Source: Candidatus Aminicenantes bacterium
GTDB taxonomy: Bacteria > Acidobacteriota > Aminicenantia > Aminicenantales > UBA4085
Length of the DNA: 57,496 bases
Direction of reading: 5' to 3'
Assembly: GCA_030691735.1 (NCBI GenBank)
Contig: JAUYDS010000122.1
Span: 1-57,496 of the forward strand
Shown: one piece after another, positions 31,987 to 50,880 of the stretch
How positions within the stretch are numbered: position 1 is the first letter of the stretch
How the letters are laid out: every line of letters starts with the position of its first letter
Notes under the pieces: model-generated
What the model saw: the letters and a program-made list of their open reading frames with translations, nothing else
Databases searched by the model: none
Told to the model about the DNA's origin: nothing
Position numbers and translations under genes: made by a program

Positions 31987-33999
31987 TTATTGCAGTGCCT
32001 GGGCGACAATCTCAGCCAAATCCAGCACCTGCACTTTTTCACCGGCCTTCAAATCTTTGATGCCGTCTTCAAACATGGTCATGCAATAGGGACAGCATAC
32101 GCAAATCGTCCTCGGGTCTTCCTTCAGGGCTTCCTCGACCCGCTCGTGGTTGATGCGCTTGCCGACGTTTTCCTCCATCCACATGTGTCCGCCGCCGGCG
32201 CCGCAGCAAAAAGACCTATTCAAGCTGCGTTTCATCTCAGTGGGGGCATGATTGATCGCCTGGGCCAGGACTTCGCGAGGAGCCTCATAGATTCCGTTGT
32301 GGCGTCCCAAATAGCAGGAATCATGAATCAGCACTTTGCCCAGGTCTCCATTCCCGTTCAATTTCAGCCGCTTCTCCTTTATCAATCCGCGAATAAACTC
32401 GGCATGATGGATGACTTCCCAATCCGCACCGTACTGATGGTAGTCATTCTTCAGGGTATGAAAGCAATGGGGGCACTCGGTGATGATCTTTTTTACCCCT
32501 CTATCCTGGAACATCTTAATATTGTCCTTAGCGATGCGATCGAAAACGTATTCATTCCCAAGACGCCGCAGGCTGTCTCCACAGCAGAGTTCATCCTTAC
32601 CCAAGATTCCCCACGAAATACCCGCCGCGTCCAGGATGCGGGCTATGGCCAGGCTGATGTGCCGGTTTCGAGCGTCAAAGGCGCCGGCGCAGCCGACATA
32701 AAATAAGTACTCGGTTTTGCCGGCCTCAAAAGGCTTGGTTTCAATTCCCGAGGCCCACTTCGCGCGGTCGGCCGGCGCGATCCCCCAGGGATTGCTGCGC
32801 TGTTCGGTATTCTCAAAAAGGTTCAGCAATTCGTCGGGGAACTTCGCTTGCATCTGGACAAGATGACGGCGCATATCGATAATTTCCCAGGCATGCTCGA
32901 TGTAAACGGGACACACTTCCATGCAGCCGCCGCAGGTGGTGCAGGCCCAGATGGCTTCCTCCGGAACGCTGCCCTCCTGATCATTGCCGATGAGGGGGAG
33001 CACGGGAGCCTGTTTTTTCGTAATGAATGGGCCGTTTTTAAGCATGTTCGTCTTAATATCGCGGATAACCAACCGGGGATTGAGCTTTTTGCCGGTGATT
33101 GCCGCAGGGCAAATCTCCTGGCAGTAGCCGCAAACAACACAGGATACCGAGTCCAGGAGTTGTTTCCAGGCGAAATTATCGACCCGGTCCACTCCAAAGC
33201 TCGAGGGGTCGTTTAAGTCGATCCGCTCGGGAGTGCCTTTGGGAGGCGTCCTCCGGAGAAGGTCATTGAGCGCGCCGGCGATTATATGCAGGTAGCGCGT
33301 GTATGCGATCATGCCCAGGACGACCAGGACGAATACCCAGTGGCTCCAAAACCAGAAGCTGTGCCATTTCGCTATTGTCGCGGCGTTGGTATAGAGATGA
33401 CTCACAGCCGTGCTCAGAGCCGGGGTGAGGATGCCCAAGCCCGCGGGAGGATGTCCGGCGGCAATCTGCGTGGCAATCTTGCCCACGTGGGTGATGGGAT
33501 GAATGAGAACCGTGATCAGGATGATCAACGCTTCTGCGGTTTGCTGCCCCTTCAATCTCGCCGGTTTGACGATATAACGGCGAATGATCGCCCAAAGCGT
33601 GCCGATCACGATAAAGGGAGCCACAAAATCCATCACCCACGTGTAATATCCGTAGATTTTGGTTTTTTCCATGACATCGGAAATGCCGAATCCCGAGGCG
33701 ATGATGATGAAGAAAAAGTAGTAAGTGACAAAAAAGAGAAAACCCCAGGCTATGAAGAGGTGACTCACGCCGCCCCTGTCCTTGCGAGTGATGTTTTTAA
33801 ATTGACACTTTTGAATGATGACATGGCCGAGTGCCGTGAAGGCCCTTTTGACGAGATGGCCGAACTTCTCGCTTCGTCTGCCGAGGGATATCAATCGAAA
33901 AAGCTGATATCCCCTGAATAAAAAGACTCCGGCAGCCAGGGCGGTTAAGCCCCAGAACAAAATATATCCAACGGCTCCAAGATCACTTACTGGGTTCAT
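31987..33999 (-). CDS. Membrane heme b/Fe-S oxidoreductase with CCG domains (FadF/DUF224, ETF:menaquinone oxidoreductase-like)
   Basis: N-terminal TM region with His residues, CVVCGYCQEICP, CTTCGGCMEVCP, CCG domains (CCGD, CPHC, HDSC, CCGAGGG, CPYC); downstream of etfBA. Confidence 0.88.
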   Translation of the reverse strand: MNPVSDLGAVGYILFWGLTALAAGVFLFRGYQLFRLISLGRRSEKFGHLVKRAFTALGHVIIQKCQFKNITRKDRGGVSHLFIAWGFLFFVTYYFFFIIIASGFGISDVMEKTKIYGYYTWVMDFVAPFIVIGTLWAIIRRYIVKPARLKGQQTAEALIILITVLIHPITHVGKIATQIAAGHPPAGLGILTPALSTAVSHLYTNAATIAKWHSFWFWSHWVFVLVVLGMIAYTRYLHIIAGALNDLLRRTPPKGTPERIDLNDPSSFGVDRVDNFAWKQLLDSVSCVVCGYCQEICPAAITGKKLNPRLVIRDIKTNMLKNGPFITKKQAPVLPLIGNDQEGSVPEEAIWACTTCGGCMEVCPVYIEHAWEIIDMRRHLVQMQAKFPDELLNLFENTEQRSNPWGIAPADRAKWASGIETKPFEAGKTEYLFYVGCAGAFDARNRHISLAIARILDAAGISWGILGKDELCCGDSLRRLGNEYVFDRIAKDNIKMFQDRGVKKIITECPHCFHTLKNDYHQYGADWEVIHHAEFIRGLIKEKRLKLNGNGDLGKVLIHDSCYLGRHNGIYEAPREVLAQAINHAPTEMKRSLNRSFCCGAGGGHMWMEENVGKRINHERVEEALKEDPRTICVCCPYCMTMFEDGIKDLKAGEKVQVLDLAEIVAQALQ

Positions 34000-34128
34000 G
34001 ATGAATGTCCTCCTTAACTACCCTCAAACCTGCGACCCAAACAGTGCAAGTCGGTCTTATCTTTCCCAACGGCCTTCAAAATACCGGCTGACCCGACCTT
34101 CGCCTTTGTTCGTTGATCATGATCGGGC

Positions 34129-35481
34129 CTACTTTTGCTCGTTCTTCGTCCTCAATTCTTTGATCCGCTCGGTAACGGCAGGAACGATCTTAAAGAGGTC
34201 GCCCACAATCCCATAGTGAGCGACCTCGAAAATGGGGGCCTGCTTATCGCGGTTGATGGCGATGATCACATCCGAACTCTGCATGCCCACAAGGTGCTGA
34301 ATGGCGCCGCTGATACCGCAGGCAATGTAAATCTTGGGCCGGACGGTCTTGCCGGTCTGACCCACTTGACGATCCTGAGGCATCCAGCCGGCCTCGACCG
34401 CGCTGCGTGAAGATCCGACCACACCCCCCAGTTCATCAGCGAGCGCTTGGAGGATTTTAAAATTCTCCTTGGACATCATCCCGCGGCCTCCGGAAACAAT
34501 CACCTCGGCCGCGGCGACATCCACGTCTTGTCCATGCTTGCTGTCATCGATCAACTCGAGCATTTTGACCGCGATATCTTCTTCTTCGATAGCCGGGGAT
34601 TCACGGATGACCATCCCGGTGCGCGAAGAGTCCTTTGCGGGCAGGGTCATGACGTGCGGTCTTACGGTGGACATCTGCGGCCGTGTTCTCTCCGTCAAAA
34701 TCGTGGCCATGATATTGCCGCCGAAGGCCGGGCGGGTTTGAAGTAAAAATCCCCGGTCGTCGATATCCAGCCCGGTGCAGTCCGCGGTCAATCCGGTGGC
34801 GAGGTCGGTGGCCACGGCCCCGGCCAGATCCCTTCCCAAGCCGGTAGCGCCCACGAGTATGATCTCCGGCTTGAATTTGCGCACAAGATGACAAATGGCT
34901 TTATAGTATGGCTCAGTGCGATAGTGACGAAATACGGGAGCATCGATCAGATAGGTTTTGGTTGCGCCATAGGCGAAGGCTTCCTGGCACAGGTCTTCCA
35001 CGCCGTGGCCGATGATCACGGCACACAGCTCGACGCCCAGGGTCTTGCTCAGATTGGCCCCGGCCCCCAATAGCTCCCAGGATACGATGGCGGGTTTCCC
35101 ATCGGTCTGCTCGACATAAACCCAAACGCCCGAGTACTCCTTGAATTTCGCCGCCGCCTTGGTCTCTACTTCAACGGTTCGTCCTTCAGCCGCCCCAGGA
35201 GCCGCCGCAGCCGCCTCCTTCCTGGCCAATTCCCATTCCTCCAGTTGCTTCAATTGTTCGGGGGTGAAGAACATCTCGAGGGCGTCGACAGGGCAGACCT
35301 TGAGACACCTCTGGCAACCCGTGCACTTTTCGAGATCAATGATAGGTTCGCCGATATCGTTCATGATGATCGCCAGCGGCTTGCATTCGACCTCACAGCG
35401 CGCGCCGCAAGCGATGCACTTTTTGGGGATGAGCCTGGCGAATCCTAAGGGTTTCCTGATTTTCTTTTTCTTTTCTTCCAT
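34129..35481 (-). CDS. etfA: Electron transfer flavoprotein alpha subunit with N-terminal ferredoxin domain
   Basis: CIACGARC/CTGCQRC clusters; GLTADCT, RPAFGGN, QVGQTGKTV, GISGAIQH. Confidence 0.93.
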   Translation of the reverse strand: MEEKKKKIRKPLGFARLIPKKCIACGARCEVECKPLAIIMNDIGEPIIDLEKCTGCQRCLKVCPVDALEMFFTPEQLKQLEEWELARKEAAAAAPGAAEGRTVEVETKAAAKFKEYSGVWVYVEQTDGKPAIVSWELLGAGANLSKTLGVELCAVIIGHGVEDLCQEAFAYGATKTYLIDAPVFRHYRTEPYYKAICHLVRKFKPEIILVGATGLGRDLAGAVATDLATGLTADCTGLDIDDRGFLLQTRPAFGGNIMATILTERTRPQMSTVRPHVMTLPAKDSSRTGMVIRESPAIEEEDIAVKMLELIDDSKHGQDVDVAAAEVIVSGGRGMMSKENFKILQALADELGGVVGSSRSAVEAGWMPQDRQVGQTGKTVRPKIYIACGISGAIQHLVGMQSSDVIIAINRDKQAPIFEVAHYGIVGDLFKIVPAVTERIKELRTKNEQK

Positions 35482-35499
35482 GGTTCAGCCTCGCGCCTT

Positions 35500-36312
35500 T
35501 TAGACGGCCAGAATATCCTTCTGAATCAACGTGTCGATTAACAAGTGGGCGGCTTCCTTGGGCATATTCGCTCCGTCGCCCAATATCTCCCCCTTGGCTC
35601 TTTGGGGCGAAAAAATCTTGCGCACCAAAGTCGGTGAACCCTTTAGCCCGACCAGCTCCTCGGGCAGATTCATGAACTTGTTATCCCAAATCGAGACATC
35701 GGTAATCTCGGACTTCAACCGCATGGGCACCGTCGGATAGCGGGGCCTGTTGATCTCTCTGACCACCGCGATCATGGCGGGCAAGGGGGCCTCAACGATC
35801 TCGTGCCTCCCCTCCAGCTTGCGCCTGACTTTGACCTTCTTGGCTTTTAAGTCGACGTTCAATATTTGATCGACCAAAGTGAGCTGTGAATAATTCAAGC
35901 GGGTCGCGATTCCGGGCCCGACCTGGGCCGTATCTCCATCGATCGTCTGTTTGCCGCAAATGACCATGGCCACCTCTTCCTCTTGGGCCAGCCGCTTGAT
36001 GGCTTCCGCTAAGACAAAGCTCGTGGCCAGGGTGTCGGCTCCGCCATAAACACGATCGCTCAATAAGACGGCCCGGTCCGTCCCCAGCGCCAAGGCCTTT
36101 CTCAAGGTCACGACGGTGTTCGGCGGCCCCATCGAAATAACAACCGCTCGAAATCCGTACTTGTCCTTGAGCCTAAGGCTTTCTTCCAGCGCATTGGTAT
36201 CATAGGGGTTGGCGATGAACGGTACGCCCTCTCTGATCAGGGTGCCGGTGTCCGGATCGATCTTAACCTGGGTCGTATCAGGAACTTGTTTGACACAAGC
36301 GATAACTAGCAC
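35500..36312 (-). CDS. etfB: Electron transfer flavoprotein beta subunit
   Basis: CVKQVPDT, NPYD, GADTLATS, GKQTIDGDTAQVGP; GTG start after AGGAGG. Confidence 0.93.
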   Translation of the reverse strand: MLVIACVKQVPDTTQVKIDPDTGTLIREGVPFIANPYDTNALEESLRLKDKYGFRAVVISMGPPNTVVTLRKALALGTDRAVLLSDRVYGGADTLATSFVLAEAIKRLAQEEEVAMVICGKQTIDGDTAQVGPGIATRLNYSQLTLVDQILNVDLKAKKVKVRRKLEGRHEIVEAPLPAMIAVVREINRPRYPTVPMRLKSEITDVSIWDNKFMNLPEELVGLKGSPTLVRKIFSPQRAKGEILGDGANMPKEAAHLLIDTLIQKDILAV

Positions 36313-36953: not shown

Positions 36954-37010
36954 TTGACAACGTCATCCTCTTCTGTATAATTATACCAATATTATGAATA
37001 TTTATACAAA
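36954..37010 (+). promoter_or_regulatory. argRGH promoter overlapped by tandem ARG boxes
   Basis: TTGACA-N16-TATAAT; 18-bp boxes TCTGTATAATTATACCAA (36972-36989) and TATGAATATTTATACAAA (36993-37010) separated by 3 bp. Confidence 0.8.
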
Positions 37011-37458
37011 AGAAAAACGGCGTCAGATCCTTCGCGAGATCGTTTCCAATCACGGCATCGGGGATCAGCATCACCTCCAGACGGAGCTCGCCCGCCGAGG
37101 GATCGATACGACCCAGGCCACCATTTCGCGCGACCTTCACGACATGGGTTATGTCAAGGTCCAACTGGACCATGGAGCTTATCGCTATGACCTTTTCGAA
37201 AAAACCGCGGAGGACTCCGTCTGGCGCCGGCTGAAGATCCTTTTCAAGAACTTCGTCATCGGCGTCAAGAGCACGCAGAACCTGCTTTTGGTCAAGACCT
37301 CGCCCGGGAACGCCAACGGCGTGGCCAGCCTCATCGACGGCCTCCGGCGAGAGGAGATCCTGGGGACGATCGCCGGCGACGACACGATCCTGATCGTCAT
37401 GGATACGAAAGAGAACTGCGAATCGGTCGAGAAGAGCCTGCGAGAGCTCCTGGACTAG
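36994..37458 (+). CDS. argR: Arginine repressor
   Basis: [27 protein letters not shown]. Confidence 0.95.
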
Positions 37459-37517
37459 GTCCCGGCAGCTCTCTCCCAGTTTTCGATCCTCTCTCTCTTC
37501 AGAACAAAGGAGCCGAC

Positions 37518-38771
37518 ATGGATAAAGTCGTATTGGCTTATTCCGGAGGATTAGATACTTCCATCATCCTGAAATGGCTCGTCGAAAAAGGCTATGTCGT
37601 CATCGCCTATGTGGCCGACGTCGGTCAGGACGAGGACCTGACGGTCATCCGCGAGAAAGCCCTGAAAACCGGAGCGTCCAAGGTCTATATCGAAGATCTG
37701 AAGCGCGAGCTGGTCACGGATTACGTTTTCCCCGCCGTCAAAGCGAACGCCATCTATGAGGGGCGCTACATGCTGGGGACGGCCCTCGCCCGTCCCCTGA
37801 TCGCCAAGCGCCAGATTGAAATCGCCCATCGGGAACAGGCACCCTGCGTCGCCCATGGCGCCACGGGGAAAGGCAACGACCAGGTCCGCTTCGAGCTGAC
37901 CTACTACGCTCTCGATCCGAAGATCCGGGTGATCTCGCCCTGGAAGAACGAGGACTTCCTGTCCGAGTTCCAGGGCCGTTCGGACATGATCGCCTATGCG
38001 AAAAAGCACGGGATCGAGATCAAGGCGTCGATGGACATGCCCTACAGCGAAGACGCCAATCTGATCCACATCAGCCACGAATCGGGAATCCTCGAGGACC
38101 CCCGGCTGACGCCGGACGATCACGTCTTCTCCAGAACAAAAAGCCCCAAGGACGCCCCCGACGAAGAGACGCGGATCGAGATCCATTTCAAGGATGGGAT
38201 CCCGGTCAAAGTTGTCGATCCCGCGAAGGGAATCGAGGAAACCGACCCCTACGAGCTCTACCGATATCTGAACTCGCTTGGCGAGGAGAATGGGATCGGA
38301 CGCGTCGATATGGTCGAAAACCGGTTCGTCGGGATCAAGAGCCGCGGCGTTTACGAATCCCCGGGGATCACCATTCTTCGGACGGCCCATATGGACATCG
38401 AAGGGATCGCCATGGACCGAGAGGTCATGCGGCTCCGCGACATGTTGACGCCGAAGTTCTCCGAGATCATTTATAACGGATTCTGGTTCTCGCCCGAGAT
38501 GGATTTCCTCATGGCCGCCGTCAACAAGAGCCAAGAGGTCATCGACGGCATCGTCCGCCTGTCCCTCTATAAAGGCAACGTCACCGTCCTCGGCCGGGAA
38601 TCTCACAGTTCCCTCTACGACAAGGATCTCTCGAGCATGGACATCGAGGGCGGTTTCAACCAGCAGGATTCGGAAGGGTTCATCAATATCCACGCGATCC
38701 GGCTCAAGGCCCACAACGCGATCATGACCAAGCAGGGCAAGAAGGTCACGGATTTCATGAAGAACGGCTGA
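37518..38771 (+). CDS. argG: Argininosuccinate synthase
   Basis: [38 protein letters not shown]. Confidence 0.97.
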
Positions 38772-40138
38772 TGAAGGTCTGGGAGCGAAGGTTCAAAGGC
38801 CGCCGGGAGGATCCCCGGCTGGAAGCGTTCAATGCCTCCATACGCGAGGACGCCTTCCTGGCCAGCGCGGAGATCGCATCCTCGAAGGCTTATGCCAAGG
38901 CGTTGCGGCGGGCGAAGGTCCTAACGGCTGAGGAACTGTCGAAGATCACCTCGGGCTTGGCGAAGGTCATCAAGCGGATCGAGGCCGGCGCAGACCTCGG
39001 GTCCTTCGAAGACATCCACTCCGCCGTAGAGCTCATGCTGATCGAGGAGATCGGCGAAACGGGGAAGAAGCTCCATACGGGCCGAAGCCGGAACGAACAG
39101 GTCGTCACCGATGAACGGCTCTTTCTGAAGAGGGAGATTCCCCGCCTGCTCGAGTCATTGAGGGCATGTCAGCGCGCCGTGATCCGTCTCGCTGAGGAGT
39201 ACCCCGATATCATCATGCCGGGATATACGCACCTTCAACAGGCGCAGTATGTCCTCTTCTCTCATTACATCATGTCGATCTTCTGGCCGCTCGAAAGGGC
39301 CAAGAGCCGGCTCCGGGACTCTTTCCAGAGGATCGACGTTCTGCCGCTCGGAACGGGCGCGCTGGCCGGCACGACGGCTCCCCTGGACCGGAAATTTCTG
39401 GCTGAGATCCTGGGCTTCGCCGCCATCTCGGAAAACTCCATGGACGCCGTCGCTGACCGGAGCTTCATCCTGGAGACGCTCTCGGCGCTGTCGCTATTGC
39501 TGCTCGACCTGAGCCGCTTCGCCGAGGACTTCGTCATCTTCGCCAGCCGCGAGTTCGGCTTCCTCGTCCTAGACGAGGCCATCGCCACATCGAGCAGTTT
39601 GATGCCGCAAAAAAAGAACCCGGATTTCTTCGAACTCATTCGGGCCGGCGCGGGTCATTTGTTCGGGCACTTCAGCCGTCTGTTCATCACGGTCAAGGGC
39701 TTGCCGTCGACTTACAATAAGGACCTTCAGGAAGATAAGGTCCCTCTGCGGGAGGGCTTGGAGGATACGGCCCGCATCCTCGAGGTCTTCCGGATCACGC
39801 TGAACAAGATCCGGCCGAATCGAAAGGAAATCGAGAGGAAAGCGGAGCCTTTCCTCGTCGCCACCGATCTGGCCGATTACTTGGCCGGAAAAGGCGTTCC
39901 ATTCCGGGAAGCCCACGGAGTCGTCGGGGAGATCGTCGGCTACGCGGAAAAGAAAAGGAAAGCCCTGAACGCGCTGACGCTGCGGGAATTCCGCGCTTTC
40001 CATCCTCTGATCGGGGATGATGTTCGGGCAATCTTCGACCCGGCCCGGTCGATCAGGCTCAAAAAGACGAGCGGATCGACCCACCCCGACCGGGTGAAGG
40101 ACCAGATCAGGAAAGCCAAGACCCTCTGCCTGAAATAA
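38771..40138 (+). CDS. argH: Argininosuccinate lyase
   Basis: LHTGRSRN, MPGYTHLQ, SSLMPQKKNPD, YNKDLQEDK. Confidence 0.96.
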   Translation: MKVWERRFKGRREDPRLEAFNASIREDAFLASAEIASSKAYAKALRRAKVLTAEELSKITSGLAKVIKRIEAGADLGSFEDIHSAVELMLIEEIGETGKKLHTGRSRNEQVVTDERLFLKREIPRLLESLRACQRAVIRLAEEYPDIIMPGYTHLQQAQYVLFSHYIMSIFWPLERAKSRLRDSFQRIDVLPLGTGALAGTTAPLDRKFLAEILGFAAISENSMDAVADRSFILETLSALSLLLLDLSRFAEDFVIFASREFGFLVLDEAIATSSSLMPQKKNPDFFELIRAGAGHLFGHFSRLFITVKGLPSTYNKDLQEDKVPLREGLEDTARILEVFRITLNKIRPNRKEIERKAEPFLVATDLADYLAGKGVPFREAHGVVGEIVGYAEKKRKALNALTLREFRAFHPLIGDDVRAIFDPARSIRLKKTSGSTHPDRVKDQIRKAKTLCLK

Positions 40139-40189: not shown

Positions 40190-41626
40190 TCAATAATTCC
40201 TGTTGAACCGCCGGAGGATCTCCTCCGCCCCGACCTGCGGGTCGAGCCACGTCGCGTCCGGGATCTGGAACCAACGGGCGTTCAGCCTCCGACGTGCAAC
40301 GCGATGGATGTTTAAAAGGTGGCTTGTCGTGATGTTGTCGGTGAAGATGTTCCCGGCCTGGGTCCCGCAGCTCAGGGTCAATGACGGCGTCAGCGTGTTG
40401 AAAGTCCCCCCGATCGCGCCCTGGGTCGCCGGCGTGTTGATGCAGATCCGCCCCGCCGATAGATGTTCGATGAATTTCTTGATCACCTTCTCGTCGTTGG
40501 CGAAGAGGCTGACCGTGTGGCCCCGGCCGCCCAGGGCATTGAGCTTGACGCAGATCTCGAGAGCCTTACGCACGGTGGGGACCTCGTAATAGGTCAGGAT
40601 CGTCGTTAGGATCTCATGGGACAGCGGATAATCCGGTCCCACCCCCTCGCACGGCGCAAGGAGCAGCTTCGTCCCGGCCGGGACGCGGAAGCCCGCCCGT
40701 TTCGCCACGAACGCCGCCGGTTTGCCGACGATATCCGCCTTCATGAGGTGGTTGGTGGAATCGAAGGCGATCGCCCCCAATTTTTCGGCCTGGGCCGGCG
40801 AACAGAAATAGCATCCCCGCTCCTCGAGGAGCGGCTTGAGCCGCCGGGCCACGTTCCGCTCTACGACCAGCGCTTGTTCCGAAGCGCAGACCGTCCCGTT
40901 ATCGAAGGTCTTGGACAGGACGATCGAATCGGCGGCCAAGGCGAGATCGGCCGAGGCGTCCACGAATGCCGGCACGTTCCCCGGCCCGATCCCGATCACG
41001 GGCTTGCCGGAGCCGTAGGCCTCCTTGACGATCTGGCGCGTACCGGTGGCGATGATGAGCGACAGGTCGCGGTGGCGCATGATGTGCCACAGGTAATCCG
41101 GGTGCTTTTTGGTGAGCCATTGCAGGCAATGTTCCGGCGCGCCGGCCTTGAGCGCGGCTTTATAGAGGACCTCCGCGGCGCCGAGCGAGCACTTCCGAGA
41201 CGACCCGTGGGGACTGAAGATCAGGGGATTGCGCGTCTTCATGGCGATAAGGGTCTTGAAGATCGTCGTCGAGGTCGGGTTGGTCAAGGGGGTCATGGCC
41301 AGGATGGGCCCGTGGGGCTGGGCGATCTCGGCGATCCCCCGGACCGGGTCCTCGGAGATGATCCCGACCGTCTTTTGGTTTTTAATGTTCTCGTAGACGA
41401 GAAGGCTGGCCCAGACGTTCTTGATGACCTTGTGTTCGAGGCGGCCTGTCCCCGTCTCTTCGAAGGCCTGCCGGGCGAACTCGATCCGGTTATCGTAGCC
41501 GGCCTTGAAGACGGCGTGAACGATCCGGTCCACGGCCTCCTGGTCGAAGCCCTTGAAGGCGTTGGCCGCGGACATGGACCGAGCCAATAGTTCGTTGGCG
41601 TAATCCTGGTAAGCCGACGTCGTCAT
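40190..41626 (-). CDS. CoA-acylating aldehyde dehydrogenase (stand-alone AdhE-N/SucD/EutE type)
   Basis: TPLTNPTST, IATG, GIGPGNVP, SKTFDNGTVCASEQ, LTLSCG. Confidence 0.88.
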   Translation of the reverse strand: MTTSAYQDYANELLARSMSAANAFKGFDQEAVDRIVHAVFKAGYDNRIEFARQAFEETGTGRLEHKVIKNVWASLLVYENIKNQKTVGIISEDPVRGIAEIAQPHGPILAMTPLTNPTSTTIFKTLIAMKTRNPLIFSPHGSSRKCSLGAAEVLYKAALKAGAPEHCLQWLTKKHPDYLWHIMRHRDLSLIIATGTRQIVKEAYGSGKPVIGIGPGNVPAFVDASADLALAADSIVLSKTFDNGTVCASEQALVVERNVARRLKPLLEERGCYFCSPAQAEKLGAIAFDSTNHLMKADIVGKPAAFVAKRAGFRVPAGTKLLLAPCEGVGPDYPLSHEILTTILTYYEVPTVRKALEICVKLNALGGRGHTVSLFANDEKVIKKFIEHLSAGRICINTPATQGAIGGTFNTLTPSLTLSCGTQAGNIFTDNITTSHLLNIHRVARRRLNARWFQIPDATWLDPQVGAEEILRRFNRNY

Positions 41627-41767: not shown

Positions 41768-41825
41768 TTGGGTTTTCGACCTGATCTCAAGAAAGAGAGT
41801 CCGCGGCGGGCGGCCGCACCCCGCC

Positions 41826-44534
41826 CTAAACGTCCCCGGGATGAGGCACCGGCAGCCCTTCGGCCGCGCAGACTCGTCTCAGCGCGGACAAGCTCCTAGG
41901 ATCCGCGAAATCATAGAACTCGGCGAACGGCCGGAGGAGCAGGTCCACGACCTCGGCCGTCTGAGGATCGAACGCCTCCGCCACGCACTGCCGGACCTCG
42001 GCCAGATCGACCCGGCTCAACTTGAGGGTCATGAACTCCGCCACGAGCCCCTTGTGGACGCGGAGCGGGCCGAGGCCGCGCGAGAGAATGTAGTCCTTGG
42101 CCCGGTTGATCCGTTTTTCGCCGAGATCGCTCAGGATGTTCAGATATTTCTGATGGAGGACCCATTCGTCGAGGAGATGGGCCACTTCGAGAGCGTTGAA
42201 GCTTTCCCAGAACGCGACCCGGGCGCCCGGCTTGATCAGGCTGCCGATGACAAAGGCGCCCGCCTGATAACCGGAGAGTCCTTTCTTAAGGCAGATGGCC
42301 AGGGCCGAGCGGAGAAGCATGACCTGGCGCTCGGGCGTGAGCAGTTCGTAAGCCGCGAGGTTGATCAAGTGAGTGCCGAGCGTGGCGTCCAGCAGGCGCC
42401 TGACGAGCGTCTCCCGGTTAATGTCGAAGCATTTGTTGACGAAGGCCGCCCGCTGGGGATCCGCGCTCATCCGGCCGAAGCGGACCGAGTGGCCCAGGTC
42501 TTGAAGGCTGTCGAATTCGGACGCGGCCACATTTTCCAGGATCCTTCGATATTCGCGATAATAGGCCGCCAAGCTCTCGAACCGCTTCCGCTCCGTGGGG
42601 GACAGATCGACCTTCTCCCCGGCCATGAAGCGGAGCAGGCGGGCCGGCGCGTAGACCGCTTTGCCGATGTAGAGGATCTTGTTCCGGCTCGAGATCGTGA
42701 TCCAATCCCCTTCGCACAGGGTTAAGCCGTCGCGATTGATGAGCAAGTGCTGGTCGTGGTCGATCCGGACGCCATCTCCTTCGAGGTTCAGCAAGGCCGG
42801 GATCCCCAAGTTCTGAGCGGCCGTCACCACGTGGATGGCGGCCGGGCTCAAACTACAGATCCCGTTGACTTTCTGCATCTCGACCGCGTCCGTCGGATTG
42901 AACCGTTCCTTGGTCAGGATGACATGCTCGCCGCTGCGTTCCTCGCGCGCGCGGCGGGCCCGGACGCCGGAAAAATAGAGCCGGCCCGTGACGGCCGATC
43001 GCGGCAGCACCGACAAGCCTTGGCAAAACGGGGTGAGCACGTGGAGCGATTTCGCGTCGATGGCGTCGGATTCGATCTGACGGATGTGGTAGGGCTTGAT
43101 CAGCTCCCGGACCCGATCGGAACTGATCTTGTTGGCCCGATGCATGTCCATGACGGACGTCACCATGCCCGCTCCGGACAGTTCGGCCGGGTTGACCTGG
43201 AGAACCGTGAACGTGCCGTGGACGCCGGTGAATTCGACCATGACCGGACCGCGGAAGATTTCCTCGAGCTGGGCCAGCCGGTCCCAGAAATGGAAGACGG
43301 CCGGGAAATCGCGCCGCGTTTCTTCGCGGCTCAGGAAATGCCGCTCTTCCGGCCGGAGCCGGCCGGTCATCAGGTCCTCGCCGAAGACGGCTCGGGCGAA
43401 CTGGAGGAAGACGCCGGTCCCCAAACGGGGATGACGGCTGTAAAGGACGCCGGCGTAGGACGACCTGTCGATGACGCTGCAGACCATTCTCTGGAAGATC
43501 ACGGCGGGGTAATGGGTCTCGCGGACCATGAAATTGCGGAGGGCGTCCATATGGCCGTCGTAATATTCATACGTTTTTATCAGAAAGAAGAGGATCTGGG
43601 CGAAGGCGCTGGACAGCAGGCCTGGATCGCGCTTCTCGATGGCGGCTTCGATCCGAAGGGCCAGATCGAGATTCTGGGTCATGGTCAGGTCGGGCCGGAT
43701 CTCCTTTTCGAACGGCCGGAACGCATCCGGGTCCAATGTTTCGAGGATGGTCTTCCGGTTGTTCAAACGGATCTTGACCGCGCCCGATTTTCCATAGCGG
43801 CGCGGAAGCCCCGGGAACATGGCCGGCGTCAGTCCGACGTTCAGATACGTCGGCATGAACCCGGGAATGTATTCCGGCATGGCTGAGCGCATGGCGATGA
43901 GGAGAGGATTGTCGGGATCCTCGAGCTTCCGGCCGCTGAGGGTTTCCAGATTGCGGATGGCGGCCTGAACCCGTTTTTCCCTGGCCGTCGGAGCGAGTTT
44001 ATAAGCGCCGGCCGAGAGGAGATTGAAATCCGCGGTGGTGAAGCCGCGGCGGGAGAGATTCAAGAGGATGGACCCCTTGTTGCTGATCTGGGCTTCGCTG
44101 AATTCCCCGGCCGTCGTGTAGGGAACGACATACTCGTTCTCGATCAGCGTCTTGCCCGAGAACCGCGGCCACATACCCTGGTGGACTTCCAGGGTCCGGC
44201 GGGCCAGCTCCCGGCGTGCGGATGATATCCCCTGACGGGCCTTGAGGATCAGGTCCAGATGTTCGATCGCCGTCGCCTGGGGAACGCGATCGAGATAGCG
44301 GACATCATAATCGCGAACGGCGACCGTCCCGGACGCTCCATCGGACATCCGATAATCGATCTCCGCCGGAAGATATCCCGGCTGGCGCTTGAAGACGCGT
44401 CCCGCGACGCGATGCTCGAGGTTCGTGGCGATCAGCCGGGCGCTGGTGTATTCCGAACGGACCTGGGTGACCCTTAAAAGGGAGCGGGGCGCGACCGAGG
44501 CCTTTCCCGGCCGCTTTCGTTTCGCGACGCTCAT
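41826..44534 (-). CDS. Pyruvate phosphate dikinase-like protein (ATP-grasp and His-swivel domains, non-canonical C-terminus), 902 aa
   Basis: SNKG, NPLLIAMRS..PGFMPTYLNVGL, QRMV, GEDLMTG, VEFT..LQ, AIHVVTAAQNLGIP, EGDWITI follow PPDK motif order; start trimmed from the 1640-aa ORF whose 5' part is antisense to the TonB receptor. Confidence 0.8.
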   Translation of the reverse strand: MSVAKRKRPGKASVAPRSLLRVTQVRSEYTSARLIATNLEHRVAGRVFKRQPGYLPAEIDYRMSDGASGTVAVRDYDVRYLDRVPQATAIEHLDLILKARQGISSARRELARRTLEVHQGMWPRFSGKTLIENEYVVPYTTAGEFSEAQISNKGSILLNLSRRGFTTADFNLLSAGAYKLAPTAREKRVQAAIRNLETLSGRKLEDPDNPLLIAMRSAMPEYIPGFMPTYLNVGLTPAMFPGLPRRYGKSGAVKIRLNNRKTILETLDPDAFRPFEKEIRPDLTMTQNLDLALRIEAAIEKRDPGLLSSAFAQILFFLIKTYEYYDGHMDALRNFMVRETHYPAVIFQRMVCSVIDRSSYAGVLYSRHPRLGTGVFLQFARAVFGEDLMTGRLRPEERHFLSREETRRDFPAVFHFWDRLAQLEEIFRGPVMVEFTGVHGTFTVLQVNPAELSGAGMVTSVMDMHRANKISSDRVRELIKPYHIRQIESDAIDAKSLHVLTPFCQGLSVLPRSAVTGRLYFSGVRARRAREERSGEHVILTKERFNPTDAVEMQKVNGICSLSPAAIHVVTAAQNLGIPALLNLEGDGVRIDHDQHLLINRDGLTLCEGDWITISSRNKILYIGKAVYAPARLLRFMAGEKVDLSPTERKRFESLAAYYREYRRILENVAASEFDSLQDLGHSVRFGRMSADPQRAAFVNKCFDINRETLVRRLLDATLGTHLINLAAYELLTPERQVMLLRSALAICLKKGLSGYQAGAFVIGSLIKPGARVAFWESFNALEVAHLLDEWVLHQKYLNILSDLGEKRINRAKDYILSRGLGPLRVHKGLVAEFMTLKLSRVDLAEVRQCVAEAFDPQTAEVVDLLLRPFAEFYDFADPRSLSALRRVCAAEGLPVPHPGDV

Positions 44535-44681
44535 TCGGCGGCCAGAGCGGCCGCGCTCCATCCCACGGTCCTGACGAATTCCCTGCGTTTCATCGCCCGT
44601 CCTCCCTGCCCGTAAGATATTCAAACTTATCTTTAAAGTAAAGCGGGGCGGTGCTAAAATGAGGGCCAAAGGACATTTGCC

Positions 44682-47525
44682 ATGAACCGACATCAAAGAA
44701 GTCAATCCCGGCGCCGGCTCATCTTGGCCGGCATCGGCATCTGCGTCATCGCCCTGGAATTGGCCTTCGCCATAGAGACGGGCGAGATCAAAGGGAAGGT
44801 CAAAGACGAGAACGGCGCGGGCCTGCCCGGGGTCGAGATCACGGCCGCCGGCCCCTCGCTCCAAGGCCTGCGCACGATCCTCTCCTCGAAGGACGGCGAC
44901 TTTCATGTTTCGCTCCTGCCGGTCGGGAAATACACGCTGACTTTCAAGCTCCAGGGATTCAACAGGGTCAAGCAGGAGAACGTCGTCGTCCGCCTGGGCA
45001 TGACGACCGGCCTGGCCGTTATTATGCCGCTGGCCTCCCTCCAAAAAGAGATCGTGGTCACGGCCGAAGCCCCGCTCATCGATAAAACCTCGACGGACAC
45101 GTCCTATCGCCTCAGCGCTGCGGACCTGGCCAAGGTCCCGGCCATGAACCGGACAGTCGTCGATGCCGTCAAGTTCGCCCCGGGCGTCACCGGCGTCCGG
45201 ATGAACACCCGCCGCGGCACGGCGTCCGAAGGCCAGCCGAGCTTCCGGGGCGAGGGCGAAGAGGGCAACACCTGGATCGTGGACGGGCTGGCTATCAGCG
45301 GCGTTCGCCTCAAGGACTCCGGAGTGAGGCTGAACTACGATTCGCTCGACGAGATCCAGGTCATCTCCGACCCGTTCAGCCCGGAGTTCGGCTCGGCCTT
45401 CGGCGGCATCATCAACATGGTCACCAAAAGCGGCTCGAACGAGTTCCGGGGCGAGGCGAGCCTCGTCTTCATGAACAAGAACCTCCAGGCGAGCCGGCAG
45501 TCCCAGCTTTCGGTCTTGAGCGAGCCGGAATATTTTTCCAACGGCAACTGGTATCTCGACCTGGGCGGCCCCATCCTCAAGGACAAGCTCTGGTTCTTCC
45601 TGTCCGAGAACTATTACACGAACACCGAGCAGACCCGGGACGGCACCCTGGACTATCTCTCCATCCCGGGCGGGCAGAAGACGACCGGCCGCAACAACGT
45701 CTTCGCCAAGCTCACCTACGCGATTAATCCCAATCACAACCTCTCGCTGACCGCGATCTACGACAAGTCCTTCCCGCAAAAAGGCGGCACGGGCCTGCCC
45801 GAGATGAACGAGGAGAACGCCGCCAAAGACCTGATCGTCCGGATGAACTATAAGGGGATCCTGAACGCGACGACGTTCATCGAGGCCGGGCTCGGCCTCG
45901 TCCAGCGGAAATCGTTCAAACATCCCGTCTCCGACGACCTGGGCCCGGCCCAGTATTTCATCAACGACCTGGCCCAAAACATCCACAGCTCCTACGGCAA
46001 CGTCGCCGACAACGAGAAGCGTCTGGACCTCAGCTTCAAGTTCAACAAGTATCTCGAGACCGAGACGTTCGGCCATCACGAGATCGGCCTCGGACTCGAG
46101 TATTACGACTTGTCCTCCGACTTCCGTTCGGAGTTCAGCGGGCGGGACGAGGACCCCTTTCCGGGGAACGGCTACGACAACGGGACAAAATATTTCTTCG
46201 ACACCTGGAAGAACGGCGCGGGGACCCCGACCACGTTCCGCGAATACGGCGTCTTCAACTTCAAGAATTCGGCGCGGGGCATCGGGATCTACCTCAAGGA
46301 CAAGGTCTCGTGGGACCGCATCACCCTCATGGCCGGCATCCGCAGTCAGACCCAGCTCTGCCTGGACGGGCAGGGCCAAAAGATCTGGGCTTGGGACCTC
46401 GCCGACTTTTTTTCCCCCCGGCTGTCCTTGATCGCCGACCTGACCAAGGACGGCGCGAACATCCTGAAGCTCGCCTGGGGCCGCTTTTCGGACCCGATCA
46501 CGACCATGCCCCTCGGCTTTTTCAATCCGGGCGGCAGTCTGACCTATCGCGATTACGTCTGGACCGGGCCGGCCCATCCCTCGGACGCCGAGATCCACGA
46601 CCCGTCGAACTGGATCTATGACTGGGGGCTGCCCATGCAGCGGTTTGCCGTCGGGAGCGGCATCTCGCCCAATTTCCAAAGCCGAATTCTCCTCGAGTTC
46701 GACCGGCGGATCGGCCGGGACTGGGCGGTCAAGGCCCGCTATGTCCATTCCAACGCCGAGAAGCTCCTGGAGGCGTTGATGCTCTTCGATCCGGGTTCAA
46801 CGCTGGGCTACAAGCTCTCCTACGAGAACTTCGAACACAAAAGGCGGTCCTACGACGGTTTCGAGATCGAGCTCAACGGCAAGATCGGCCGGGATTTTTT
46901 CCTGAACGCGTCCTATTCCCACGCGCTGTCTGAGGGGACGAACCCCGGACAAACCGAAACGGGCGGCTGGGGGAAGGAGGAAGGCAGCACGAACTACGTC
47001 GGCCTGTTCGGAAAACATATGTATATCCCGGCCATCCCGGAGCTGGCGGACGTGAAAGCGGAAAACGACCGGATGTTCGGCGGCCTGGGCGGCCGGGGGA
47101 TCGGCGATGAAGGATGGTACGGCAAACTCCCCTACTCGGTCGACCACGACCTCAAAGTCAACGCCATGGTCAACGCGCCGTTCGGCATCCTCTGCTCGGC
47201 GGCGTTCGAATTTATTTCTGGCTATTATTGGGAGAAGCTGGGCTACGTGCCCGGTTTCCTCGACTATTACGCCTTCCCCGAAGGCCGCGGAACGCGCGAG
47301 ACGCCCGCCCACAGTTATGTCGACCTGTCCCTCGAAAAATCGTTCGCGGTGCCGATCAAAGGATTTCTCAAGGACGCCTCGCTCTCGGTGCGCCTGGACG
47401 TCTTTAATCTGCTCAACAGCCAGATCCCGATCTCCTACGTCAAACAGGATGTTTCCTTCTTCGGATCGGTCTGGGGCCGGCAGCAGCCGCGTCAAGCGCG
47501 GATCTCGGCCAAATTGAAGTTTTAA
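44682..47525 (+). CDS. TonB-dependent outer-membrane receptor (Oar-like, N-terminal carboxypeptidase-regulatory-like domain)
   Basis: GEIKGKVKDENGAGLPGV, GGIINMVTKSGSNEFRG, LGGPILKDKLWFF, SPRLS, DVFNLLN, terminal Phe. Confidence 0.92.
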   Translation: MNRHQRSQSRRRLILAGIGICVIALELAFAIETGEIKGKVKDENGAGLPGVEITAAGPSLQGLRTILSSKDGDFHVSLLPVGKYTLTFKLQGFNRVKQENVVVRLGMTTGLAVIMPLASLQKEIVVTAEAPLIDKTSTDTSYRLSAADLAKVPAMNRTVVDAVKFAPGVTGVRMNTRRGTASEGQPSFRGEGEEGNTWIVDGLAISGVRLKDSGVRLNYDSLDEIQVISDPFSPEFGSAFGGIINMVTKSGSNEFRGEASLVFMNKNLQASRQSQLSVLSEPEYFSNGNWYLDLGGPILKDKLWFFLSENYYTNTEQTRDGTLDYLSIPGGQKTTGRNNVFAKLTYAINPNHNLSLTAIYDKSFPQKGGTGLPEMNEENAAKDLIVRMNYKGILNATTFIEAGLGLVQRKSFKHPVSDDLGPAQYFINDLAQNIHSSYGNVADNEKRLDLSFKFNKYLETETFGHHEIGLGLEYYDLSSDFRSEFSGRDEDPFPGNGYDNGTKYFFDTWKNGAGTPTTFREYGVFNFKNSARGIGIYLKDKVSWDRITLMAGIRSQTQLCLDGQGQKIWAWDLADFFSPRLSLIADLTKDGANILKLAWGRFSDPITTMPLGFFNPGGSLTYRDYVWTGPAHPSDAEIHDPSNWIYDWGLPMQRFAVGSGISPNFQSRILLEFDRRIGRDWAVKARYVHSNAEKLLEALMLFDPGSTLGYKLSYENFEHKRRSYDGFEIELNGKIGRDFFLNASYSHALSEGTNPGQTETGGWGKEEGSTNYVGLFGKHMYIPAIPELADVKAENDRMFGGLGGRGIGDEGWYGKLPYSVDHDLKVNAMVNAPFGILCSAAFEFISGYYWEKLGYVPGFLDYYAFPEGRGTRETPAHSYVDLSLEKSFAVPIKGFLKDASLSVRLDVFNLLNSQIPISYVKQDVSFFGSVWGRQQPRQARISAKLKF

Positions 47526-47526
47526 C

Positions 47527-47641
47527 ATAATCCCCCCTCACCCCCCTTTAGGAAAGGGGGGAATTCTTATCCCCCTTTTTTAAAGGGGGATGGAGGGGGA
47601 TTATGCTCCCCCTTTTTTAAAGGGGGGTGAGGGGGGATTAT
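47527..47641. repeat. Composite palindromic element with perfect terminal inverted repeats between convergent genes (REP/MITE-like, possible bidirectional terminator)
   Basis: ATAATCCCCCCTCACCCCCCTTTA ... TAAAGGGGGGTGAGGGGGGATTAT with three internal CCCCCTTT..AAAGGGGG hairpins. Confidence 0.85.
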
Positions 47642-49467
47642 TCGACCGTCACGCTCTTGGCCAGGTTCCTCGGCTGATCGACGTCCGCTCCCCGTTTCGC
47701 CGCGATATAATAAGCGAACAACTGGAGGGGCACGACCGTGAGGAACGGCATCAGGAGCGGATGGGCCGCGGGGACGGGGATGACCGCGTCCACGCGCTGA
47801 CGGATCTGCGCGTCGTTCTCGTGGGCCACGGCCAGGACATACCCCAGCCGCGCTTTGATCTCTGAGATGTTGCTCAGCATCTTGTCGTAGACCCGGTCCT
47901 CGGGGATGATGGCCATGGTCGGCATATTTTCATCGATCAGGGCGATCGGCCCGTGCTTCATCTCGCCGCCGGGATAGGCCTCGGCGTGGATATAGGAGAT
48001 CTCCTTTAGCTTGAGCGCGCCCTCCATCGCGACGGGGAAATTCACCCACCGCCCGAGATATAGGAAATGGGAGAACGGCACGAAATGCAAGGCCAGGTCC
48101 TCGATCGTCTTGGCCTGTCCTAGGATCTTCTCCATCTTGTGCGGGATCCGTTGGAACTCCTGAATGAAGGCCAGGCTCGCCTTTTTATCCACCGCTCCCC
48201 GCGCCTGGGCCACGTACAGGGCGATGAGGGCCAGTGCCGTCATCTGGGCGGTGAAAGTCTTGGTCGCGGCCACGCCGATCTCCGGCCCGGCGTGCGTGTA
48301 GAGGACGCCGTCCGCCTCGCGGGCGATGGAGGAGCTGACAGTGTTCGTCACGGCCAGCACCGCCGCGCACTTGCCCTTCGACGCCCGCAGGGCGGCCAGC
48401 GTGTCGGCCGTTTCACCCGACTGGGAGATCACGACCACGAGGGTCTCCTTGTCCAGGATGATGTCCCGGTAGCGGAACTCCGAGCCGTACTCGACGTCGA
48501 CGGGAAGCTTCGCCAGCGACTCAAAGAAATACCGGCCGACGAGTCCGGCGTGATAGGACGTCCCGCAGGCGATGAGGACGGCCTTGCGGACCTTCTTCAG
48601 GAGCTGGGGCTTGACGCCGAGCTCATCGAGCAGGACCTTCCCCGAATCGAGAGAGGTCCGTCCGAGGAGCGTGTCCCGGACGACCTCGGGCTGTTCGAAG
48701 ATCTCCTTGAGCATGAAATGCTTGAACCCTCGTTTCTCGATCATCATCGGGTTCCAGGCGAGCGTCTCGACCTTTTTTTTGACGGCGTTCCCCTTGAAGT
48801 CGGTGAACGTGACCCCCGACGGCTCGAGGATCGCCATCTCCCCGTCGTCGAGAAAGGCCACCTTCTGCGTATGGCTGAGGATCGGGTTGATGTCCGAGGA
48901 AAGGAGGTATTCGTCGTCGCCGAAGCCGACGACGACCGGAGGCCCGAGCTTGGCCGCCACGATCTTGTCCGGATCGTCGGCCGAGATCGCGGCGATGGCG
49001 AACGCGCCTTCCAGGACGGCGATCGCCGCCCGCACGGCGTTCTCAAGCGATCCTTTGAAATGCTTCTCGATGAGGTGGGCGATGACCTCGGTGTCGGTCT
49101 CCGTGGTGAATGTATGGCCTTCGTCCTTGAGCTTCCGCTTGAGGACCAGGTAGTTCTCGATGATCCCGTTGTGGACGATGACGATCCGGCCGCTGCAGTC
49201 CCGGTGAGGATGGGCGTTCTCCTCGCTCGGCCGGCCGTGCGTGGCCCAGCGCGTGTGACCCAGGCCGTAGGACCCGGCCAGAGGCGACTTCTTCAGGCTC
49301 GCCTCGAGCTCCTTGATCTTGCCCTTGACCCTTTTGACATGGATCTTGCCTTTATCGACCAGGGCCACTCCGGCCGAATCGTAGCCGCGATATTCGAGCT
49401 TCTTCAGCCCTTCGATGAGGATGGGAACGACCTTCTTTGGGCCGATATAGCCGATGATTCCGCACAT
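47638..49467 (-). CDS. glmS: Glutamine-fructose-6-phosphate aminotransferase
   Basis: MCGI, LEYRGYDSAG, GHTRWATHG, SQSGETADT, DQPRNLAKSVTVE. Confidence 0.98.
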   Translation of the reverse strand: MCGIIGYIGPKKVVPILIEGLKKLEYRGYDSAGVALVDKGKIHVKRVKGKIKELEASLKKSPLAGSYGLGHTRWATHGRPSEENAHPHRDCSGRIVIVHNGIIENYLVLKRKLKDEGHTFTTETDTEVIAHLIEKHFKGSLENAVRAAIAVLEGAFAIAAISADDPDKIVAAKLGPPVVVGFGDDEYLLSSDINPILSHTQKVAFLDDGEMAILEPSGVTFTDFKGNAVKKKVETLAWNPMMIEKRGFKHFMLKEIFEQPEVVRDTLLGRTSLDSGKVLLDELGVKPQLLKKVRKAVLIACGTSYHAGLVGRYFFESLAKLPVDVEYGSEFRYRDIILDKETLVVVISQSGETADTLAALRASKGKCAAVLAVTNTVSSSIAREADGVLYTHAGPEIGVAATKTFTAQMTALALIALYVAQARGAVDKKASLAFIQEFQRIPHKMEKILGQAKTIEDLALHFVPFSHFLYLGRWVNFPVAMEGALKLKEISYIHAEAYPGGEMKHGPIALIDENMPTMAIIPEDRVYDKMLSNISEIKARLGYVLAVAHENDAQIRQRVDAVIPVPAAHPLLMPFLTVVPLQLFAYYIAAKRGADVDQPRNLAKSVTVE

Positions 49468-49476
49468 GGGGCCCCT

Positions 49477-50880
49477 CTATCGCGGAGGACTCTCGCTCTT
49501 CCGCTTCTCCCGTTTTCGTCGGGCCCAATCCGCCTTCTCGATCTGCCGGCTGCGGGCAACGGCCAGCGCGTACGGGGAGACATCCTTGGTGATGACCGAT
49601 CCCGCGGCGATATAAGCCCCCCGGCCGATCCTGACCGGCGCGACGAGCTCCGTGCCGGAGCCGATGAAGGCGCCGGCTTCGATGATCGTCCGGTGCTTCC
49701 GGACGCCGTCATAATTGCAAGTGATCGTGCCGGCGCCAATGTTGACCCCCTCGTGGATTTCGCTGTCGCCGAGGTAAGTGAGGTGCCCGGCCTTCGCCGC
49801 CCGGCCGAAATCGGTGTTCTTCATCTCGACGAAATTGCCGACATGCGAGCCGGCGCGGAGAAAGGTCTTCGGCCGCAGGCGGGCGAACGGGCCGACCGTG
49901 ACGCCCTCCTCGATGGTCACGTCCTCCATGACGGTCGAGCTGAAGACCGTGACGCCGTCGGCGATGCGGGAATTGATGATATGAGCGCCCGGATAGAGGC
50001 GGCAGCGGGCGCCGACGGTTGTCCGGCCTTCGAGAACGACCGAGGGATAAACGATCGTGTCCCGGCCGATCTCGACATCCAGGTCGATCCAAGTCGAAGC
50101 GGGATTTAGGAAGGTGACGCCGGACTCGGCCACCTCGCGGATCTTGCGCTCGCGGAGGACATCCATGGCCCGGCTCAGGTCGAGGCGGGTATCGACCTGA
50201 ACGATGGCTCGGGAGTCCGGGGTTTTAAACGCCTTCACTTTTTTCCCGGCGGCGGAGAGGATGGCCAGGATGTCGCTCAAATCGTATTCCCCGGCCTTGT
50301 TCCTGTTCGCGCCTTTGGGAAGGGCCCACAGCAGATCTCTCGTCTTGAACGCATAAACCGACGTATCCACTTCGCGAACCGCCCGTTCGCGAAGGCCCGC
50401 CTCTTTGTCCTCGACGATCCGAACGCATCCGTCATCGGCGCGGATGATCCGTCCGAATCCCGAAGGGTCCTCGACGTCCGCGCTAAGGATCGTAGCGGCA
50501 TTCCCGCGCCGCCGATGGAAGGAGAGAAGGGACCGCAGGGCTGCAGGTTGGATAAGGGGAAGGTCGGCGGGCATGACCAGAATGTCGGCGGCCGCGTTTT
50601 CGCGAAGGATGCTCTTCGCCGCCAAAACCGCGTCGGCCGTGCCTTTCGGCACTTTCTGATGGACGAATCCGACGCGGAGCAGGAGCGCTTCTTCCATCAC
50701 CGCTTCGCGCTGATGCCCGACGACGACGGTGGTTTTAGCAGGCTTGAGGCTCTGGACGGTCTCGCAGACCAGTCTGAGCATGGACCGGCCGAGCAAGGGA
50801 TGAAGAATCTTGTTGGACTCGGAGCGAAAGCGGCCGCCCCGCCCCGCGGCCAGGACAAGCGCCAACAAGGGTCGTTTCAT
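49477..50880 (-). CDS. glmU: Bifunctional UDP-GlcNAc pyrophosphorylase / GlcN-1-P acetyltransferase
   Basis: LAAG..KILH, GFGRIIR, VGPFARLRP, GNFVEMKN, HLTYLGD, NIGAGTITCNYDG. Confidence 0.93.
   Translation of the reverse strand: MKRPLLALVLAAGRGGRFRSESNKILHPLLGRSMLRLVCETVQSLKPAKTTVVVGHQREAVMEEALLLRVGFVHQKVPKGTADAVLAAKSILRENAAADILVMPADLPLIQPAALRSLLSFHRRRGNAATILSADVEDPSGFGRIIRADDGCVRIVEDKEAGLRERAVREVDTSVYAFKTRDLLWALPKGANRNKAGEYDLSDILAILSAAGKKVKAFKTPDSRAIVQVDTRLDLSRAMDVLRERKIREVAESGVTFLNPASTWIDLDVEIGRDTIVYPSVVLEGRTTVGARCRLYPGAHIINSRIADGVTVFSSTVMEDVTIEEGVTVGPFARLRPKTFLRAGSHVGNFVEMKNTDFGRAAKAGHLTYLGDSEIHEGVNIGAGTITCNYDGVRKHRTIIEAGAFIGSGTELVAPVRIGRGAYIAAGSVITKDVSPYALAVARSRQIEKADWARRKREKRKSESPPR

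Follow-up and report, generated by a model that had tools for sequence, protein, structure and literature searches.

What does a dikinase do when it keeps the ATP-dependent engine of pyruvate, phosphate dikinase (PPDK; EC 2.7.9.1) and has lost the barrel in which the pyruvate reaction takes place? This question is raised by a gene in a 57,496-nt stretch of DNA from a Candidatus Aminicenantes bacterium (contig JAUYDS010000122.1 of assembly GCA_030691735.1; hereafter the window). The gene lies on the minus strand at 41829..44534, with its stop codon at 41826-41828, and encodes a 902-aa barrel-less PPDK-like dikinase. An earlier note, made from the sequence alone, had given its extent as 41826-44534, which is exactly the coding sequence plus stop. 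The gene call rests on the open reading frame (ORF) and its translation, a start codon aligned with those of homologous loci, and homologues that are 59-87% identical. From the N-terminus, the protein comprises a family-specific domain predicted to be small alpha/beta plus helices (residues 1-132; 44139..44534), a PPDK-type ATP-grasp nucleotide-binding domain with the first linker (residues 133-494; 43053..44138), a phospho-histidine swivel (carrier) domain (residues 495-628; 42651..43052), and an all-helical C-terminal domain (residues 629-902; 41829..42650) in the place of the phosphoenolpyruvate (PEP)/pyruvate TIM barrel. The predicted phospho-carrier, His568, is encoded at 42831..42833 within the motif SPAAIH and aligns with H455 of the Clostridium symbiosum PPDK. 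We lean towards the interpretation that the protein is a soluble, self-contained phospho-histidine dikinase derived from PPDK, in which a non-pyruvate acceptor would be phosphorylated at the helical C-terminal domain. The earlier note had likewise read it as a phosphotransferase, with a small molecule or a protein as acceptor, and this reading is supported by the predicted helical, non-barrel C-terminal domain and by the conserved His and ATP-grasp residues.

The core of the protein is recognisably that of PPDK and is strongly diverged. The ATP-grasp and His-swivel motifs follow each other in the PPDK order, as the earlier note had described. The NCBIfam PPDK model TIGR01828 matched weakly, at 104.3 bits against a cut-off of 843.45 and over model positions 229-508 of 865, so that no full-length match above the curated cut-off was obtained. 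Among solved structures, all 12 sequence matches were to PPDK; the best was 1dik (E 2.9e-19 with the single sequence as query), and a family profile reached 2dik at E 2.1e-31, covering PPDK residues 56-508. The sole Pfam hit was the PEP-utiliser mobile domain PF00391 at residues 536-599, below threshold (18.4 versus 23.1 bits). To compare catalytic residues, PPDK numbering was transferred through the canonical PPDK of a related genome and a MAFFT alignment. The equivalents of K22, R92, G101, E323, Q335, and H455 in the C. symbiosum enzyme (1kbl/1dik) are kept as K153, R216, G225, E434, Q446, and H568. These six residues are invariant in 76 close homologues and in 17 distant full-length members, so conservation of the His and ATP-binding residues, on which the earlier note had staked its reading, extends down to 31% identity. 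On the other hand, D321, R337, and T453 are replaced by M432, N448, and A566, and the Asn at the R337 position is found in all 10 family members aligned with PPDK. As the note had observed, the catalytic His is kept and the regulatory Thr is gone: His568 of SPAAIH corresponds to H455 of GGMTSH, with Thr453 replaced by Ala566, and the motif in relatives reads SLTSAA[IV]H. The protein thus has a PPDK-type ATP-grasp with the ATP/Mg residues and a central swivel domain with the catalytic His. Judging from these residues, the engine looks functional, and its phosphate chemistry need not equal that of PPDK.

The C-terminal domain sets the protein apart from PPDK most clearly. None of the barrel motifs RTEHM, GTNDL, FSFG, and GIGL occurs in the dikinase, and the canonical PPDK of a relative has them. 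The earlier note was right that this stretch is not a barrel, and its estimate of about 240 aa was too short, the actual length being 274 aa. Two AlphaFold2 models, one of the whole protein and one of the C-terminal domain alone, gave 14 helices and no strand; the isolated domain, modelled from a 37-sequence alignment, reached a pLDDT of 89.7 and a pTM of 0.81. A degenerate PEP-utiliser barrel, which the note had named as the finding that would count against it, is ruled out by these strand-free helical models, and no Pfam PEP-utilizers_C match was present. Residues 629-902 gave no Pfam or NCBIfam match at E <= 10. Foldseek found no PDB structure at E <= 0.001 for the domain model, with TM at most 0.27; the best match of the domain profile among PDB sequences had only E 0.37, and the ESM Atlas returned weak leads (0.77-0.84). 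PADLOC had no match to the whole dikinase at E <= 1. As modelled, it is a helical domain without a recognisable fold and without a Pfam or NCBIfam model.

The domain is nevertheless under clear constraint. Its mean pairwise identity is 57% among close and 33% among distant members, with 12 invariant columns; among the distant members the corresponding values are 24% for the N-terminal domain, 41% for the ATP-grasp, and 47% for the His domain. Residues conserved in distant members are E648, G720, H722, G755, F761, G764, W776, E790, Y797, and G805, those from G720 onwards being invariant there. Behind the PPDK-type core, the family is marked by the motifs LGxH, GYxAGxFxxG, FW, and NEWxLxxKY. This polar and glycine-rich pattern suggests a ligand or catalytic site, and conservation of this kind behind a dikinase core would be expected if the domain held a working second site. 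Complex prediction between the swivel (495-625) and the C-terminal domain (645-902) scored 0.00 in both runs; the controls of these runs did not fold, and the score speaks neither for nor against docking.

At the other end of the protein, the N-terminal extension of about 130 aa noticed earlier is real. It measures 132 aa, with residue 133 of the model aligning with PPDK residue 2, and is modelled at a pLDDT of about 90 from residue 20. It had no Pfam or NCBIfam match (E <= 10) and no PDB-sequence profile match better than E 0.37, and the ESM Atlas yielded no lead for it. The domain is confined to this dikinase family and is the least conserved part of the protein. A search for stand-alone copies returned 11 short proteins, all from the same family, which are probably fragments.

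Under our preferred interpretation, ATP would bind in the ATP-grasp domain and His568 would become (pyro)phosphorylated. The swivel domain would then ferry the phosphoryl group to a putative second site in the C-terminal domain, formed by LGxH722, G755-x3-G759-x-F761-x2-G764, W776, E790, and Y797, and a non-pyruvate acceptor would be phosphorylated there, or the whole sequence might run in reverse. Our best guess for the acceptor, held with low confidence, is a small phospho-acid of lower glycolysis, with 2-phosphoglycerate/PEP-type chemistry. A C3 phospho-acid leads because of an association with enolase in a distant branch of the family, described below. Swaps of the acceptor domain as such have precedents in rifampin phosphotransferase, HpeHI, and PpsAB.

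The dikinase belongs to a family of its own. A word-indexed search found 262 proteins at E <= 0.001. The best 120 of these are 59-87% identical to the query and mostly 856-912 aa long, and more than 100 are full-length with the same architecture. Origin of this architecture by gene fusion or misassembly can be rejected, as the same layout occurs on >100 independent contigs. Organism labels among the best 120 are Aminicenantes, Latescibacteria, Vicinamibacterales, and Acidobacteriota. Of the named records among them, most carry the label "hypothetical"; the name PPDK is given to three, and "PEP-utilizing enzyme" and "phosphohistidine swiveling domain-containing protein" to one each. When 1.84 billion representative proteins were searched exhaustively by HMMER, with the C-terminal domain as query, only 88 matched, 36 of them at E <= 1e-30. 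In the 17 full-length representatives (826-905 aa), the domain follows the dikinase core and ends within 15 residues of the C-terminus. The rest are fragments, except for the 1550-aa P0199, which consists of a tandem grasp-His-C-domain module without the N-terminal domain and keeps the catalytic K, R, E, Q, and His in both copies. This arrangement suggests that the functional unit is the three-domain module, which may work as a dimer. Our literature search found no paper describing this barrel-less dikinase family.

Its distribution is patchy. Of 151 genomes sampled from the order, 28 carry the family (17 of the 105 high-quality ones); they belong to 14 of 60 genera, and presence varies within genera. 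In a sample of 301 genomes from the phylum, the family occurs in 5. It stands beside canonical PPDK as an additional paralogue: a canonical PPDK fragment lies at a contig end in the window's genome (712.6 bits, model positions 415-865), together with an Enzyme-I-like gene elsewhere in that genome, and 10 of 13 related genomes have a canonical PPDK that scores above the family cut-off. The dikinase gene is therefore an accessory paralogue. Of the marks of a phosphoenolpyruvate synthase (PpsA), neither a PEP-utiliser barrel nor a family-level match was found. In one metagenome-assembled genome, two contigs (L003 and L005) carry two family copies that are 60 and 55% identical to the query and have neighbour families in common. 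The copy on L005 runs over two frames, and instead of being true paralogues the two may have arisen from a mixture of strains or from indel errors in long reads. Near-identical DNA to 41829-44534 was seen in metagenome contigs of two other studies (0.94, 0.76, and 0.41 of sampled words), and no RNA run was listed among the 23 sequencing runs.

The clue to the acceptor comes from a different class of the same phylum. Of 251 genomes there, four carry the dikinase family; three belong to a single genus and the fourth to another family. Exactly these four also encode a permuted-enolase protein of 843-859 aa. In this protein, an M50-like membrane part with an HExxH motif is followed by Enolase_C and then Enolase_N, that is, the enolase is circularly permuted. 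The genes are found at 11212-13791 (-) in locus L105 and 7448-9979 (+) in L104, and also in L117 and L118. In all four cases the permuted-enolase and dikinase genes lie tail-to-tail, with a 4-nt overlap or separated by 20 nt, 246 nt, or 2.4 kb; one of the enolase genes (the G499 copy) contains three in-frame stop codons. In the phylum sample of 301 genomes, five had the dikinase family, seven the enolase fusion, and two both.

Within the window's own order, a permuted enolase occurred in 3 of 151 genomes, and in two of the three a single ORF joins it to a PPDK-like protein that also lacks the barrel but differs from the window's dikinase. These giant ORFs encode 2079 aa (P0222; L114, 6068-12307, +) and 2298 aa (L113, 4308-11204, -), and run from an M50-like part through the permuted enolase and a helical region of about 730 aa to a PPDK-type ATP-grasp and a C-terminal swivel His (GGSTSH). 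By their domain content they are fusions of the Rosetta-stone type, linking enolase chemistry to a second barrel-less PPDK family. The giants resemble our dikinase in combining PPDK ATP-grasp and swivel His, a missing barrel, a large helical domain, and an association with permuted enolase. They differ from it in that their helical region is N-terminal to the ATP-grasp, and BLASTP against P0002 gave short motif matches only. Kinship between our C-terminal domain and the giants' helical region was considered and rejected (hhalign probability 0.07%, against a single sequence). The link with enolase is real for the distant branch, and it extends to barrel-less PPDK relatives in general. The window's protein is most likely an ATP-driven phospho-His dikinase for a non-pyruvate acceptor, perhaps acting in PEP/2-phosphoglycerate chemistry.

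Several observations weigh against this line of argument. The four genomes in which the two genes co-occur span just two genera, and the genes are convergent and therefore not co-transcribed. No permuted enolase turned up in the genome of the window (92.5% complete), where the only match was to canonical-type enolase, nor in 27 of the order's 28 genomes with the dikinase family, so the enolase clue may not apply here. The 85 close dikinase loci gathered for the neighbourhood analysis gave no permuted enolase either; the window's clade works without a permuted-enolase partner. Of these 85 sources, a simple ORF caller kept the target in 77, many of the loci being closely related and the counts accordingly non-independent. 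Across these 77 loci from the window's clade, no neighbour was conserved. Within four genes of the target, the families seen most often were alpha-galactosidase-like proteins (10 loci), DPP-IV peptidases (8), sulfatases (8), TonB-receptor-like proteins (7), beta-lactamase-like proteins (6), and hybrid sensor kinases (6). A conserved operon partner was rejected on this basis, the most frequent family occurring in just 10 of 77 loci. As regards the core, PF00391 stayed under its gathering cut-off and PF01326 was undetected in the window's dikinase, and with D321, R337, and T453 all replaced, the nucleotide/phosphate chemistry may differ from that of PPDK or be impaired.

A more ambitious version of our interpretation can be formulated, which we regard as doubtful. 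It would make the helical domain a new phosphoryl-acceptor module, through which the PPDK engine, running from ATP to AMP or backwards with PPi, is linked to C3 chemistry of the enolase type. Barrel-less PPDK relatives and the membrane-anchored permuted enolase found in other lineages would then make up a pathway not described before, or a point of control, connecting glycerate/2-phosphoglycerate with PEP in uncultured anaerobes, and the Aminicenantes version would be the stand-alone form.

The main rival to the favoured dikinase reading, a tentative possibility in our view, is a regulatory kinase in the manner of VadK (Rv1127c). His568 would autophosphorylate without any small-molecule acceptor, and the C-terminal domain, perhaps with the N-terminal one, would bind and regulate metabolic enzymes such as enolase, with or without phosphotransfer. 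A precedent exists, as VadK is reported to be a PPDK truncated after the His domain that autophosphorylates and acts on metabolism by interacting with metabolic enzymes (PMC13400623). Both proteins combine a PPDK-derived ATP-grasp and catalytic His domain with the loss of the pyruvate/PEP domain. All-helical domains with weak repeat-like structural matches are often interaction modules, and the tail-to-tail pairing and strict co-occurrence with enolase in the distant branch would suit a protein partner. However, VadK stops after the His domain, whereas the dikinase family adds conserved N- and C-terminal domains, the latter continuing for 274 residues past the His domain. The NCBIfam model NF004531 for short barrel-less PPDK relatives, which we take to be linked to the VadK type, matched at 83 bits against a cut-off of 456. 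Moreover, the invariant His, Glu, Tyr, and Trp and the glycine-rich motifs of the C-terminal domain resemble a ligand or catalytic site more than an interaction surface, and the enolase partner was not found in the window's clade.

Glucan water dikinase, with which the earlier note had illustrated the reuse of the scaffold, is an enzyme of plants and algae with several domains, carbohydrate-binding modules among them, arranged in another order, and no sequence or fold match between it and the window's dikinase was seen. It is described as having a pivoting His domain and a non-pyruvate acceptor (PMC13553574). For rifampin phosphotransferase (RPH), also named by the note, and for HpeHI, reuse with other acceptor domains is documented (PMC12167813, PMC4844700). 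RPH, HpeHI, CreHI, and PpsAB are presented there as using an ATP-grasp and a swivelling phospho-His that moves between two substrate sites, with AMP and Pi as products (PMC4844700, PMC12167813). The window's dikinase shares with them an acceptor domain that is not the PEP barrel, and could be a phosphotransferase for xenobiotics or secondary metabolites, similar to RPH or to phenol/hydroxyphenylethanone kinases, whose C-terminal domain would bind an antibiotic, a phenolic, or a similar compound to be activated or inactivated by phosphorylation. We consider this unlikely. Enzymes of this kind are documented (PMC4844700, PMC12167813), the accessory distribution (28 of 151 genomes, 14 of 60 genera, split within genera) would fit, and variable neighbours are usual for resistance or scavenging genes. 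But RPH and HpeH carry their His domain at the C-terminus, and in this group of enzymes the substrate domain is central or a separate subunit, whereas the dikinase keeps the PPDK order with its His domain in the centre (495-628). No RPH chain was among the listed structural matches of the C-terminal domain or in the PDB profile search, and no similarity to the RIF-binding domain or to HpeHI-type substrate domains was detected; the sole pointer is a weak language-model lead in the ESM Atlas (0.77) from the C-terminal domain to clusters carrying "Rph_4th". The loci offer no catabolic or resistance gene context, and the pairing with enolase seen in the distant branch indicates central metabolism instead. 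More improbable still is a catalytically dead scaffold, which, having lost D321, R337, and the barrel, would perform no phosphotransfer and serve a structural or binding role. The changes of D321 to Met and of R337 to Asn could be read in this way, given that, by their titles, entries 2dik and 1jde are of mutants at R337 and K22, respectively, and so could the sub-threshold Pfam domain-model matches. Yet the invariance of H568, K153, R216, E434, and Q446 to 31% identity is hard to explain without catalysis, and the Asn that is invariant at the R337 position in 10 aligned members suggests a changed rather than a lost function.

If the favoured reading of a phospho-histidine dikinase with a non-pyruvate acceptor holds, the family would join the small set of swivelling PPDK-type dikinases, among which a new acceptor domain has, up to now, always come with new chemistry (starch, rifampin, and phenols). 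It also matters for annotation. Since records call the family "hypothetical" or mis-name it PPDK, metabolic reconstructions of Aminicenantes and of related uncultured bacteria can count a second PPDK, though the domain for the pyruvate reaction is missing. The pairing with a membrane-anchored permuted enolase in the distant branch offers a concrete, testable entry to function.

The boundaries of the gene deserve comment, as the mechanical ORF of the dikinase extends upstream to 46748 (1640 aa). The extension is antisense to a TonB-dependent-receptor-like gene at 44682-47525 (+) with Plug, CarboxypepD_reg, and OMP barrel domains, and the ATG at 44534 matches the aligned start codons of four homologous loci, in which an upstream peptidase gene stops about 20-25 nt ahead of the dikinase start. 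The protein starting there has no hydrophobic segment (highest 19-residue Kyte-Doolittle mean 1.23) and is soluble. The open frames at 44535-46748 (-) and 46797-47528 (-, a 243-aa ORF) both run antisense to the receptor-like gene; such long antisense frames without a family match look like artefacts of high G+C. A 20-codon ORF, MKRREFVRTVGWSAAALAAE, lies directly upstream of the dikinase at 44531-44593 (-). A GGGAGG Shine-Dalgarno sequence precedes its ATG by 7 nt, its stop codon TGA shares bases with the start codon of the dikinase (ATGA), and its start resembles a twin-arginine signal. We rejected it as an upstream peptide gene because it is not conserved in the four homologous loci; it may be what is left of a secreted-protein gene that was displaced, or an ORF that arose by chance. 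Downstream, a terminator-like hairpin at 41802..41818 (-) begins 8 nt past the dikinase stop. It came from a consensus scan, is weak evidence, and is merely suggestive, as four such sites were seen in the region versus 3.2 expected.

Further downstream on the same strand, 200 nt away, is a stand-alone acetylating aldehyde dehydrogenase of 478 aa (40190-41626, -), which matches the N-terminal half of AdhE (550 bits, under the full-length cut-off) and EutE-type models. It recurs solely in the closest locus, L018. Housekeeping clusters flank the dikinase on both sides, namely argR-argG-argH at 36994-40138 (+) and glmS-glmU at 47638-50880 (-). Finally, at 31987-36312 (-), an electron-transfer flavoprotein pair, whose alpha subunit bears an N-terminal 2x[4Fe-4S] ferredoxin domain, adjoins a 670-aa CCG-domain/4Fe-4S protein, and this cluster looks like a module of the electron-bifurcation type.

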